Source: a phage
Sequence record: PZ386967.1
Length of the DNA: 64,000 nt
Direction: 5' to 3' (one strand)
Below, one piece after another: positions 24,497 to 61,170 of the stretch. The notes below the pieces were generated by a model. That model worked only from the letters and a program-made list of their open reading frames with translations, had not been told where the DNA came from and made no database searches. Positions within the stretch are counted from its first letter, which is position 1; each line of letters begins with the position of its first letter. Both the position numbers and the translations under genes were made by a program.

Positions 24497-24564
24497 GATA
24501 TACGGTTATTCACTAAACAACAGAGGCTATAATGGCCTCTGTTTTCGTATTCTAAGAGGATACC

Positions 24565-32544: not shown

Positions 32545-32609
32545 AGTCCCCAACAAACGTTGGGGATTTTTACTTTTAGGGGTTTACTTCTATAATGTAA
32601 ATGCGTATT
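32545..32609 (+). promoter_or_regulatory. Terminator plus T4-type early promoter cassette (copy A)
   Basis: Hairpin TCCCCAAC-AAAC-GTTGGGGA with T-run, then -35 TTTACT (32581-32586), 17 bp, -10 TATTAT (32604-32609). Confidence 0.55.
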
Positions 32610-35181: not shown

Positions 35182-35260
35182 ATACGATAGTTTATTGAAA
35201 CCCTTTACTCATCATGGTGAGCCGCCTATCATTTCATCCAATGAAATAAGGAGAATCACC

Positions 35261-35947
35261 ATGAAACGTTTAATCCTCGGGGTCGTGCTGTCTGGTCTGG
35301 CATTACCCGCCGCTGCTAAGCTGAACCCCACAGGTGATAAACTGTGGTCCGACCTTTCCTATTGTGCTGGGTTCTCCCAGGCGGTTGCCATCGACAAGTC
35401 TGGTTCCATAGAGAACTTCGCTGAACTCTGGAACACAGGCAACGTCTCCACTGCTGTCGTCAATGCCGGAATTGAGTTCAACCGTTACAAACAGGGAGCC
35501 TATAACCTCAAGGGCTACCTCAATGACGACGAATTTAACCGTGGAGGCATGGAGGCTGGCGATTTGATCATGACTGGGCGTATGGGCACCCAAGGCCGAA
35601 TGACCGTAAGACAGTGCCGTTCGCTCCCTTCTCCGGCATTACAGAAGGGTGTGCAGGTTGGTCGCCGCCACCTGAACCTCATCAACGATGGCAACCAGTG
35701 CGTCAAAGTATTCGAATACAGCGCTACGCAGACCTCTGATCGCGTCCTGAAGAAGGAATGGCGCACCCGCGCTCTTGGTCTCAGAGCCTGGCTGGTTGAG
35801 AACGATTATTACTTTGAAGACAGGGTTCAGAACGGTCTGAAAGACCTGGCCACGAATCTGAGCGTGAACCTTGATGATCCTCGCATGTCGCGCGAACTCC
35901 AGCAGACTCGTGTTGACTGCGACAATATGATGAAGGAGAACGAGTGA
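35261..35947 (+). CDS. Secreted/periplasmic protein (228 aa)
   Basis: MKRLILGVVLSGLALPAAA|K signal peptide; RBS AGGAGA. Confidence 0.5.
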   Translation: MKRLILGVVLSGLALPAAAKLNPTGDKLWSDLSYCAGFSQAVAIDKSGSIENFAELWNTGNVSTAVVNAGIEFNRYKQGAYNLKGYLNDDEFNRGGMEAGDLIMTGRMGTQGRMTVRQCRSLPSPALQKGVQVGRRHLNLINDGNQCVKVFEYSATQTSDRVLKKEWRTRALGLRAWLVENDYYFEDRVQNGLKDLATNLSVNLDDPRMSRELQQTRVDCDNMMKENE

Positions 35948-52154: not shown

Positions 52155-52162
52155 TATAAATA
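52155..52162 (+). promoter_or_regulatory. T4-type late promoter (TATAAATA)
   Basis: Exact TATAAATA 26 nt upstream of the ATG at 52188. Confidence 0.5.
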
Positions 52163-52187: not shown

Positions 52188-52493
52188 ATGAAACCTTTTA
52201 TCGAATATTTTAAAGAACAAGCCGCTCAACCCCAGACCCATGCTGGTGTCCAGGGTAAGACCGTATCCATCACCAAGCAAGCTGACGGCACCCAGTGGTG
52301 TTCCGGCGCTACCGTGACCCAGATTACCCCTGACAATCAGGCGGATGTATATAACCTGGAGTTAACCAACGGCAACACTATCAAGGTGAAGCTGACCCCA
52401 GACCAGACTCACGGTATCTCCCAAGGTCAGGAAGTCGTTGCTGTTCATGACGGCTTCGAATTCTTCTTTGGCAAGTCTATCGACAAAGACTAA
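52188..52493 (+). CDS. Internal-protein-like small protein with capsid targeting sequence
   Basis: MKPFIEYFKE|QAA resembles T4 IPI/IPII/IPIII N-termini; canonical late promoter and RBS GAGGAGA upstream. Confidence 0.5.
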   Translation: MKPFIEYFKEQAAQPQTHAGVQGKTVSITKQADGTQWCSGATVTQITPDNQADVYNLELTNGNTIKVKLTPDQTHGISQGQEVVAVHDGFEFFFGKSIDKD

Positions 52494-52578
52494 GTGAAAC
52501 CATCAAGATGACTCTTGTCAAGCCATGATCATAATCCCCCTTAAATACAGGGGGATTTCTTTTTCTGAGGACAACATC

Positions 52579-52932
52579 ATGGTCAATGCGAGTATTTTCA
52601 TCAACCGTGGACTGCTTGCTATAGCCCACTCTCATGCCTTGCACTTCGTTACAACATCCTATGCCAAGCACAAGGCACTCGGGGAGTTCTACGGGGAATT
52701 GGAGGGCTTGCTGGACACGTTTACCGAAGCATACATCGGTGCGGGTGGTCAGTATGTTCCATCATTCGAGAATATCAAATTGTACAACCCAGACCCTATC
52801 TCCTATATTAACAGTGTGGTGATAGACGTCGATGGCATCTACAAGCAGTGTGACTCCCACCTTCAGAGCACTCTTGACGATATCAAGACACTGTGCTACC
52901 AGACGATCTACAAACTGAAGCAGCTGTCGTAA
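52579..52932 (+). CDS. Hypothetical protein (117 aa)
   Basis: Internal ATG of the track ORF with RBS GAGGA 8 nt upstream. Confidence 0.4.
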   Translation: MVNASIFINRGLLAIAHSHALHFVTTSYAKHKALGEFYGELEGLLDTFTEAYIGAGGQYVPSFENIKLYNPDPISYINSVVIDVDGIYKQCDSHLQSTLDDIKTLCYQTIYKLKQLS

Positions 52933-53175
52933 GTCAATACGAAATAAAGGCATATAATTTTGCTCATTATTCGCCAAAAGGAAAGGACAATGAGCAAAAT
53001 CTTTACCCCGACACATGCGCAGCTACATGAATCTCTTGGACGGCTTCGCCCACTTCGAGCGCAACACGGCTGATAAACAGAATATATTGTATGGGGCTTG
53101 ACGACAACTGTGTATAGCTCAAAGTCGTGATGTAGACTATACTGTGACCGAAGTGTTCCAGAGGCAGAAGATCTA

Positions 53176-54237
53176 ATGAAATTTCTTGATGAACAATTCA
53201 TAAATTACGTTGCTCCTAGACTCGATAAATTCAAGTGGGAACGTGTTGGGTCTGTCGCAAATTTTAGATGCCCAATTTGTGGAGATTCTCTCAAAAGTGC
53301 TAACAAGCGACGCGGTTATTTTTTCTTCGATCGAGATAATGATTGCTTTCGGTTTAAATGTCATAATTGCCATAACATGAGTGGCTGGGCGTTTGAGTTC
53401 TGGTTGAAGAAGTTTGATGAACGCTTGTCCACTGAGTACAACATGGAGAAGTTCCGTCTGCTGGGTGATTCATCTTCCAAGCCGCTCCCGGCGCTGAAGC
53501 CTTTGCCAAAGCTGACACAATCAGCCCGTATCGGTTCAATGGAGGCTAAACGCGACGAGAGCCTCCTCGGCAATATGCTCCGGCTTGATCTGCTACCGCC
53601 TGACCATAAGGCTCGGCAGTACGTACAGGGCAGGGGAATGCCGGAGAGCACGTTGCCCCTCCTGTATTACACCCAACACTTCCGCCAGGATCTACTCCAG
53701 TTCGAAACGAATCCCGAGAAGCAGCTGAAAATCCCCGATGACGAGCGGCTGGTGATTCCGTTCTGGACTCAGGATGGTCGCATGAAGATCGTCCAGGGAC
53801 GTGCATTTGAAGTGCGTGATGGGGTACTGCGTTACTCTACTGTCAAGCCGCGCGATGAAGACACTAAGGTCTATGGTGAAGACCGGGTGAACTTTCACAA
53901 GACCAAGCTGGTTGTGGAAGGTCCGATTGACAGCCTGTTCCTACCCAACTGTCTTGCATCAGCCGACGCCGATCTACTGAGTGTGAAGGGTGACATCTAT
54001 ATCCCCGACAACCAGTACCGAAACCCGCAGGTATGTGATGGCATTCAGAAGATGATAGATAAAGGTGTCAAGGTCGTCCTCTTCCCGCCGAACATTCCGT
54101 GGAAGGACATCAATGATATGGTCATGCCTTCGAAGGGTAACATGGCCATACGAGACCTCCTGAAGCTGATTGCACAGAACGTCTACCAGGGGATGGCCGC
54201 ATCACTGCAATTTGCTGAACTGAGGAAAGTGAGATGA
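53176..54237 (+). CDS. gp61: DNA primase (gp61-like)
   Basis: Zinc ribbon FRCPICGDS...FKCHNCHN; LVIPFW, QGRAF, VEGPIDSLFL and C-terminal NIPWKDINDM align with T4 gp61. Confidence 0.8.
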   Translation: MKFLDEQFINYVAPRLDKFKWERVGSVANFRCPICGDSLKSANKRRGYFFFDRDNDCFRFKCHNCHNMSGWAFEFWLKKFDERLSTEYNMEKFRLLGDSSSKPLPALKPLPKLTQSARIGSMEAKRDESLLGNMLRLDLLPPDHKARQYVQGRGMPESTLPLLYYTQHFRQDLLQFETNPEKQLKIPDDERLVIPFWTQDGRMKIVQGRAFEVRDGVLRYSTVKPRDEDTKVYGEDRVNFHKTKLVVEGPIDSLFLPNCLASADADLLSVKGDIYIPDNQYRNPQVCDGIQKMIDKGVKVVLFPPNIPWKDINDMVMPSKGNMAIRDLLKLIAQNVYQGMAASLQFAELRKVR

Positions 54238-54440
54238 CATTAGAAGAACTGAACAAACTGGACGACGGAGAGATCTTGCGGGGGTACTTGAAATCTCGTG
54301 AGGGATATGTCCTATCTGGGGAAGAGTCTCCGAGTTTCATCCACGGCTGGAAGAATGGTCAGGTGGACTTCCATGGGGTTCCCATCAGTGCTGAGCAAGC
54401 CGAATTGGCTCGCGAGTTTGTAAGATTTCGCCCGAACTAA
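54234..54440 (+). CDS. Hypothetical protein (68 aa)
   Basis: Start overlaps the primase stop (ATGA). Confidence 0.4.
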   Translation: MTLEELNKLDDGEILRGYLKSREGYVLSGEESPSFIHGWKNGQVDFHGVPISAEQAELAREFVRFRPN

Positions 54441-54468
54441 AACTTTTTACTTCACATTACTTCCATCC

Positions 54469-54563
54469 AGGCCTCATTCGACGAGGCCTTTTAAAATACT
54501 TCAAAAATAATTTTAAAAAATTATTGAAAAAGACTTTACTCTTCAATAATGATGCACTATTAT
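54469..54563 (+). promoter_or_regulatory. Terminator followed by AT-rich region and T4-type early promoter
   Basis: Hairpin AGGCCTC-ATTCGAC-GAGGCCT with T-run; -35 TTTACT 54535-54540, 17 bp, -10 TATTAT 54558-54563. Confidence 0.55.
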
Positions 54564-54636
54564 AGTTCACATAGGGCGGTAACACACCGCCGAATGAAAA
54601 GTGAAATGAACCAACTACATTATGAGGAATTACATC

Positions 54637-61123: not shown

Positions 61124-61170
61124 AGCCCCTCAATGAGGGGCTTTACTTCTATAATCCCTGCGCTTATACT
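61124..61170 (+). promoter_or_regulatory. Terminator plus T4-type early promoter cassette
   Basis: Hairpin GCCCCTCA-A-TGAGGGGC, then -35 TTTACT (61142-61147), 17 bp, -10 TATACT (61165-61170). Confidence 0.55.

Follow-up and report, generated by a model that had tools for sequence, protein, structure and literature searches.

Genes flanking the interval

The window, meaning the whole 64,000-nt stretch of phage DNA analysed here (PZ386967.1), comes from a member of the Ackermannviridae, subfamily Aglimvirinae, as indicated by the sequence matches of the region. The best matches were the Escherichia phages YX22, ZQ1, PC3/PH4, A221 and LHE287 (~91%), followed by Dickeya Limestonevirus, Shigella Ag3 and Salmonella SKML-39. 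Two plus-strand genes border the interval under study: a DUF5856-family gene (52579..52932; Pfam PF19174, E=3e-29), recognized from the LIMEstone1 annotation as the homologue of ORF078, and the gene of a T4 gp61-like DNA primase (53176..54237). The stop codon of the former is at 52930-52932 and the ATG of the latter at 53176, leaving a gap of 243 bp. The first-pass annotation had reported this gap, together with a TATAAT at 52953-52958 and a perfect 12-bp stem at 52957-52968/52989-53000, and had proposed that it encodes a small RNA or a structured leader regulating the primase. The gap, the hexamer (read directly from the sequence) and the stem (recovered by a repeat search) were all found at exactly these positions.

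In the LIMEstone1 record, ORF078 is a confirmed virion protein and has an annotated late promoter. Upstream of the DUF5856 gene of the window there is a late-promoter-like TAAATAC (52542-52548), located in the loop of a terminator-like hairpin at 52533-52557 (AATCCCCC-TTAAATAC-AGGGGGATT-TCTTTTT); the LIMEstone1 annotation gives this promoter-like hexamer as a late promoter. TAAATAC is enriched (9 vs. 3.4). A second terminator-like hairpin with a promoter-like hexamer in its loop was seen at 24519-24551 (AACAGAGGC-TATAAT-GGCCTCTGTT-TTTCG).

On the other side, the primase unit closes at a terminator (~54467-54491), after a small ORF 3' of the primase. Beyond it (window 54440-54620) come an A/T-rich stretch and a TTTACT-N17-TATTAT that resembles a promoter and has the label 'middle promoter' in LIMEstone1. 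The leader of the next gene, in the same segment, has a G+C-rich hairpin (GGGCGGTAACACACCGCC). The GenBank entries of ZQ1, PC3 and A221 give a primase CDS of 858 nt that lacks 201 nt of its 5' end; by tblastn the full frame of 353 residues is intact there (L001 2278-3336, L029 1078-2136, L030 1077-2135).

LIMEstone1 and YX22 carry two further genes between DUF5856 and primase: an ORF of 203-204 aa (LIMEstone1 ORF077) and the homing endonuclease gene F-LimV. Genes of the F-LimV type (NUMOD3 motif) are present or absent in the relatives exactly between the ORF077 stop and the primase start. They overlap both neighbours (TAATG, ATGA), for example in L002 (3183-3839), L003 (2702-3358) and L015 (3343-3999), and in L017 (3850-3963) the gene is reduced to a remnant of ~37 codons. 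The window is without such a gene.

ORF077 in related phages

The ORF077 gene of the relatives encodes 202-205 aa, lies between the DUF5856 gene and the primase, and overlaps the primase start with its stop codon (TAATG). At least 80% of the protein is encoded by 354 phage records. In 25 IMG/VR loci (L002-L026) the gene was found directly 5' of the primase, down to a primase identity of 45%.

Searches with ORF077 against Pfam and NCBIfam, and single-sequence searches against the PDB, gave no match, and the protein was placed by profile and fold searches only. Its family is phrog_631, and a 'DNA repair protein' phrog was matched more weakly. In an alignment of 46 homologues, D43, E57 and K59 were invariant. 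The profile matched PDB 3DNX (E=1e-4), the MmcB-like PD-(D/E)xK protein SPO1766, which is the nearest solved structure. The AlphaFold model had a pLDDT of 92.6, and Foldseek placed 3DNX at the top (probability 1.00), followed by PaqCI, Cas4 SSO0001, NucS/EndoMS and BamHI. Because of the three invariant residues, the profile match and the AlphaFold/Foldseek result, we assigned the intact product, a putative nuclease, to the PD-(D/E)xK nuclease fold. An additional, overlapping function in the 3' end of ORF077 was considered and rejected, the synonymous-site conservation across clades being only marginally higher there (0.72-0.76 vs. ~0.65) and not convincing.

A deletion has removed the core of the gene

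In blastn searches the interval was split in two pieces, which are ~420 nt apart in LIMEstone1 and YX22. The 5' piece (52733-53016) covered the end of the DUF5856 gene, the spacer and the first 27 nt of ORF077, and the 3' piece (53007-53180) the last ~170 nt of ORF077. As reference for the deletion size we used L004, the closest intact relative free of the endonuclease gene. Comparison with its gene placed the deletion junction at 53016..53017 (plus strand). Exactly 425 nt are missing, corresponding to nt 28-452 of the 612-nt gene and to codons 10-151. The remainder of 425 divided by three is 2, so the frame is shifted after the junction. In the intact gene the junction is flanked by imperfect direct repeats, TTACCCCGACACAT and TTACCCGGCATAT. 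Deletion between short repeats is a signature of slippage or illegitimate recombination.

Past the junction, the 3' remnant of the gene (53017..53176, plus strand) aligns with the intact gene over 160 nt without gaps, in a frame that differs from that of the ATG, and ends with the original stop TAA (53174-53176). Read in the old frame, it translates to RSYMNLLDGFAHFERNTADKQNILYGA, a stop, RQLCIAQSRDVDYTVTEVFQRQKI and the final stop, and aligns codon for codon with residues 151-203 of the intact homologues (tblastn: residues 145-204, 82% identity). The in-frame stop is a TGG>TGA change at 53099-53101, later than the deletion. The catalytic D43, E57 and K59 are all within the deleted part. The whole catalytic core is removed, and no such nuclease-fold protein can be made from the window. 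At the 5' end there remains a 27-codon ORF (52990..53073, plus strand; MSKIFTPTHAQLHESLGRLRPLRAQHG, then a stop), composed of nine authentic codons and an out-of-frame read-through past the junction.

Relative to LIMEstone1 ORF077, the window shares the syntenic position and, at the nucleotide level, the first 27 and the last 160 nt, whereas the central 425 nt with the catalytic D-E-K core are gone, the frame is broken and a stop has been gained. Homology, deletion and frame loss are demonstrated by these alignments. The description of the ~170 bp after the stem as lacking a convincing ORF holds in that there is no intact gene, but the stretch belongs to a 27-codon ORF and to a frame-shifted, stop-containing gene remnant. 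Two minus-strand ORFs, 52908-53201 (97 aa) and 52762-53016 (84 aa), were judged spurious, their frame not being conserved among the sister phages. One of the two is nevertheless given as a CDS, across the pseudogene remnant, in the GenBank record of PC3.

The identical junction was found in five GenBank phages only (ZQ1, PC3, PH4, A221 and LHE287). In the other 248 records matching the interval, the two pieces were ~670 bp apart or the 3' part alone was matched. All five sister phages have an equivalent of the residual ORF, of 27-28 codons, with varying residues after the junction. Among the six deletion carriers the segment 53001-53105 has indels and differing stop codons. The remnant had 23 variable columns of 106 in the six carriers, compared to 20 of 354 in the DUF5856 gene (p=5e-6), and was no more variable than the mosaic primase gene (p=0.36). 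With a primase gene that varies just as much, this rate comparison is confounded as proof of decay, and we relied on the stops and indels instead. The locus originated by one 425-nt deletion between the imperfect direct repeats, after which a stop was gained and, in the sister phages, indels accumulated.

The start codon of the dead gene lies in a hairpin

The two arms of the inverted repeat have 12 nt each, are 100% complementary and are 20 nt apart. The 5' arm, ATTTTGCTCATT (52957..52968, plus strand; inverted-repeat search and fold), is the non-coding, anti-start-codon strand. The 3' arm, AATGAGCAAAAT (52989..53000, plus strand; inverted-repeat search and alignment), covers the start of the ORF077 homologue, with the ATG at 52990-52992 and codons 2-4. 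It reads A-ATG-AGC-AAA-AT, with the dead gene's own AUG (ATGAGCAAAAT). The Shine-Dalgarno sequence of the dead gene, AAGGAAAGGA (52978..52987, plus strand), is within the 20-nt loop (52969-52988). In the folded RNA the AUG is paired within the 12-bp stem and the Shine-Dalgarno sequence is in the loop.

As RNA, the 60-nt hairpin element had a dG of -15.9 kcal/mol and a z-score of -4.5, none of 200 shuffles folding as well. The stem was kept when the folded RNA began at 52900 and was lost when it began at 52965 (dG -7, z +1.4). It did not appear in the terminator scan and was rejected as an intrinsic terminator: only 4 of its 12 pairs are G-C, the loop has 20 nt, and CUUUACCCC follows. The same scan found no terminator between the DUF5856 stop and the stem.

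A repeat of this kind could be a chance product of AT-rich intergenic DNA, and 8 of the 12 pairs of the stem are indeed A-T, while its 88-nt context reached a z-score of only -1.9. Against this, first-order Markov shuffles gave an expectation of 0.13 perfect 12-nt inverted repeats with a loop of 3-40 nt per 64-kb window. Three were observed, the remaining two being terminator-like. The z-score of the 60-nt element itself (-4.5) also speaks against chance, and so does the conservation of the stem described below.

TATAAT, stem, Shine-Dalgarno sequence and ATG are retained in all six deletion carriers. With the regulated gene dead in the window, any present function of the stem there is uncertain.

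Conservation of the hairpin in three clades

The first-pass annotation had suggested a structure and covariation analysis against relatives, and this analysis bore the stem out: it is conserved in Aglimvirinae, Kuttervirus and Taipeivirus, with one compensatory U-A>C-G change. Aglimvirinae with an intact gene have the same hairpin module or one that is nearly identical. Kuttervirus has the arms ATTTTGCCCATT/AATGGGCAAAAT and Taipeivirus the arms TTGCCCAT/ATGGGCAA. The compensatory change is found in Kuttervirus, where the A>G behind the replacement of Ser2 by Gly has its counterpart in a T>C of the non-coding arm. The hairpin is stable in all three clades, with a dG of -15 to -17 kcal/mol (-15.3 to -17.2) and z-scores of -2.9 to -4.7. 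Between the clades the loop and the upstream spacer cannot be aligned, while the 5' arm and the TATAAT directly 5' of it are kept. The T-run between the two shortens from 4 to 2, the arm spacing varies (20, 23-24 or 27 nt) and so does the arm length (12, 11 or 9 bp). In the Serratia-, Erwinia- and Vibrio-infecting relatives no comparable stem was found.

Over 13 distinct sequences of this stem, 96% of the cells were paired, compared to 39-47% when the partners were slid. This set contains one compensatory event only, and 7 of the 12 pairs never vary. A stem kept across three genera with a compensatory change, despite a diverged neighbouring spacer, is not what chance would leave; the comparative sequence data already refute a chance origin, to which we attach a negligible probability. 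On the same comparative grounds, the inverted repeat is a translation-initiation hairpin of the ORF077 gene and a real, conserved RNA structure.

Hairpins of unrelated sequence with the same layout

In EspM4VN, some Klebsiella Taipeivirus genomes and several metagenomic contigs, a phrog_30076 gene sits between DUF5856 and ORF077. Its product (164-169 aa, MTCISIPHYI...) is of unknown function, and the gene is inserted in some Agtrevirus or Taipeivirus genomes and metagenomic contigs. With this gene inserted, ORF077 starts by a TAATG or ATGA overlap and has no hairpin. The ATG of phrog_30076 is instead located in the 3' arm of an unrelated 12-bp stem (CATGGCGTGAGT...ACTCACGCCATG), whose 5' arm ends in a -10-like TATCAT. 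We located this second hairpin family, with a conserved GAGTATCATA motif, in L036 (195-258), L019 (2561-2624), L038 (452-515), L040 (437-500) and L044 (149-212). In its five distinct sequences 100% of the cells pair (21-46% when slid), and three pairs have compensatory double changes, one of them with a G-C, G-U, A-U series. Further versions are present in the contigs L043 and L045, where the AUG of ORF077 pairs with a strand containing TATAAT or TATCAT.

We also scanned the window for perfect stems of at least 9 nt over the ATG, considering every ATG that follows a Shine-Dalgarno sequence and begins a frame of 60 codons or more. The only other plausible gene start with such a stem was at 35261. 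The rest of the matches were a window-edge ORF, an in-frame ATG inside that ORF, and an opposite-strand 60-codon ORF sharing the same palindrome. The hairpin at 35261 (window 35205-35264) has the arms TCATGGTGA (35212-35220) and TCACCATGA (35256-35264), the latter with the ATG of an ORF at 35261-35947. Folded as RNA, it had a dG of -21.8 and a z-score of -3.6, and its 5' arm is inside the 17-nt spacer of a sigma70-like TTTACT-N17-TATCAT. The ORF encodes 228 aa, belongs to phrog_4260 and has a signal-peptide-like N-terminus.

The recurring rule is that the 3' arm always holds the start codon of whichever gene is first, with a -10-like hexamer at the 5' arm. That the stem is conserved, with covariation, and always linked to the start codon is demonstrated across these relatives. 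Such a link, constant in hairpins of unrelated sequence, argues for translation control at the RNA level rather than for a DNA site.

An inverted repeat may also work as DNA, as an operator for a dimeric protein, a cruciform, an element of a replication origin, or a homing-endonuclease or recombination site. This would agree with a perfect palindromic pair that adjoins a promoter-like element beside replication genes, and with the F-LimV-type homing endonuclease gene, polymorphic ~180 bp away in relatives; compensatory changes would moreover preserve a DNA cruciform as well. The spacing and the length of the arms vary between clades, however, and the start codon of the first gene is always in the 3' arm, in at least three versions unrelated in sequence. 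The G-U wobble intermediate (G-C > G-U > A-U) of the second hairpin family is sensible only in RNA. Because of the variable spacing, the G-U intermediate and the constant start-codon link, a function at the DNA level is unlikely, and its probability in our estimate is very small.

The TATAAT element and the small RNA hypothesis

The -10-like TATAAT (52953..52958, plus strand) abuts and overlaps the 5' arm, is conserved in the three clades and is a putative promoter element. It pairs with no downstream sequence consistently, so the stem does not account for its conservation. With 34 sites compared to 14.6 expected, TATAAT is overrepresented in the window. The promoter scan revealed no convincing -35 element or sigma70 -35/-10 pair at 52953, and there was no upstream motif shared with the other TATAAT sites of the window. 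A T4-type late promoter at the stem was rejected, the late-promoter-like motifs being located upstream of it, TATAAATA at 52155 and TAAATAC at 52542. No promoter is annotated at the hairpin site in the records of LIMEstone1 and vB_SenM-2. A literature search returned no transcript maps of Ackermannviridae and no description of a start-codon hairpin of ORF077. Elsewhere in the window, a motif GGGG(C/T)TTTACTTCTATAAT is repeated directly after terminator-like hairpins (32579-32596 and 61138-61155). Together with the overall enrichment of TATAAT, these repeats may represent a phage-specific promoter class.

A -10-like hexamer followed by a stable stem-loop, in an interval without an intact protein gene, had suggested an independent small RNA that starts from the TATAAT and contains the stem-loop. 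A transcript begun there would, however, miss most of the 5' arm, and no terminator follows the stem. A permissive Rfam scan (52400-53700) gave only a minus-strand potC hit, with 24.8 bits against a gathering score of 44. The whole interval of 258 nt folded no better than shuffles (z -1.0), and the sequence 3' of the stem is a codon-for-codon homologue of a protein gene, with stops and indels among the sister phages. A small-RNA gene is not supported, because there is no Rfam family above threshold and no terminator, and because the body of the presumed RNA, the ~170 bp without conserved structure, is the decaying 3' end of ORF077. We give this hypothesis hardly any weight.

The sequence before the primase

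The dead gene's last codons contain the Shine-Dalgarno sequence AGAGG of the primase (53160..53164, plus strand), and in the window the primase must be translated from it. The last 70 nt before the primase ATG (53106-53175) are no longer protein-coding, yet almost invariant in the six deletion carriers, with two variable columns. They are less variable than the segment just upstream (23/106, p=3e-4) and than the primase gene (194/1072, p=3e-4). This invariance fits retained promoter and primase-initiation functions. It could also come from a recent common origin, or from gene conversion around the nearby endonuclease insertion site; an internal promoter and an endonuclease target site are further candidate causes.

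Invariance of this kind would be expected as well if stem-loop and remnant had been co-opted, in the deletion lineage, as a leader for primase translation, for example via the 27-codon ORF or via long-range pairing with the Shine-Dalgarno sequence of the primase. In the interval's fold of lowest energy, 53031-53047 does pair with the region of this sequence, and the TATAAT, the stem, its Shine-Dalgarno sequence and ATG and the ORF of 27-28 codons are kept in 6/6 deletion carriers. The stem is, however, 176 nt away from the primase ATG and the short ORF ends 102 nt before it, with variable residues past the junction. In the 156 nt before the primase (53020-53175), RNAalifold found no conserved structure among 12 phages (-4.2 kcal/mol, with an unfavourable covariation term of +0.25), and the 5' module could have been kept for its promoter function, or because the deletion is young. 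A conserved primase leader structure is not supported, and we regard co-option as improbable, though less so than a function of the repeat as DNA. From the original proposal of a structured leader regulating the primase, the conserved structured 5' leader with its conserved TATAAT stands, but it belongs to the ORF077 homologue and is followed by the primase ATG only 176 nt downstream.

A proposed T4-type gate for translation

We consider it likely that the 243 bp hold a pseudogene of the ORF077/phrog_631 gene with an internal deletion, together with the intact expression-control module of that gene, whose hairpin is a gate of the T4 type. In T4, the initiation regions of e (lysozyme), soc, 49 and I-TevI are sequestered by hairpins that have a promoter in the 5' strand (PMC3014915, PMC2988022). 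Based on the sequence and on this analogy, a gate like that of the four T4 genes is the best reading of the hairpin.

In the phages with an intact gene, the gate would work as follows. The DUF5856 gene would be the source of read-through transcripts carrying both arms. In these RNAs the stem would form and bury the AUG, leaving the nuclease gene and the coupled primase untranslated. Transcripts from the conserved TATAAT would begin inside the 5' arm (~52964-52967), could not form the stem and would be translated. The overlap of the ORF077 stop with the primase start suggests that the gate also influences primase synthesis in these phages. The DUF5856 stop is 25 nt 5' of the 5' arm, presumably too far for terminating ribosomes to open the stem, and the repression may be partial, with the Shine-Dalgarno sequence in the loop. 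Promoter activity at the TATAAT, the start inside the arm, read-through and translational repression are what we infer. In the window, the gate would now precede only a 27-codon junk ORF, and the TATAAT may still be a promoter for the primase.

The likeness to the T4 genes comprises several points. The AUG, or in T4 the Shine-Dalgarno sequence and/or the AUG, is taken up into a local helix, and the helices are similarly stable. At the 5' strand there is a -10 element, here that of a putative promoter, whose transcripts would be unable to form the helix. The regulated gene is part of a longer transcription unit. In several T4 cases the product is a nuclease (gp49, I-TevI), and ORF077 is nuclease-like by its predicted fold. 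There are also differences. Only the AUG is paired here, the Shine-Dalgarno sequence being in the loop, and the regulated gene of the window is a pseudogene. In T4 the promoters are late ones that depend on gp55 (TATAAATA), and it is the early or middle transcripts that are closed, whereas the hexamer here is TATAAT, which is sigma70-like and differs from the late motif, with TATCAT in the sister hairpins. What lies upstream here is a late virion gene, and the temporal polarity may be reversed.

Hairpins that sequester the ribosome-binding site are also known from free-standing homing endonuclease genes, Aeh1 mobE and T4 segB (PMC2988022). As in these cases, the hairpin described here belongs to a nuclease-type gene inside a replication-gene operon and is proposed to limit translation, and a mobile endonuclease gene, of the F-LimV type, is polymorphic in the same operon of relatives. 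Unlike mobE and segB, ORF077 is a syntenic core gene in ~350 genomes and not a mobile cassette, and its fold is PD-(D/E)xK, neither HNH nor GIY-YIG.

A more speculative version, which we put forward tentatively and hold to be rather doubtful, is a T4 gate of reversed polarity at the boundary between the late virion gene and the nuclease-primase genes. RNAs from the sigma70-type -10 element would be translatable early or in the middle phase, and late read-through RNA would be silent. This 'late-off' switch would have been reinvented with unrelated sequences at each gene insertion, and would be kept in the window as a primase promoter.

The interval is best annotated as a pseudogene of the ORF077/phrog_631 nuclease-like gene, rather than as intergenic DNA or a small RNA candidate. 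At least one lineage that infects Escherichia can thus do without an otherwise near-universal neighbour of the Ackermannviridae primase. Hairpins that mask a start codon and have a -10 element at the 5' arm exist in several unrelated, covariation-supported versions at one operon boundary, and once elsewhere in the window. The kind of mechanism is itself not new; the hairpin comparisons extend a regulatory principle of T4 to a different family of large myoviruses, and the hairpin is a short, directly testable element for the temporal control of replication genes.
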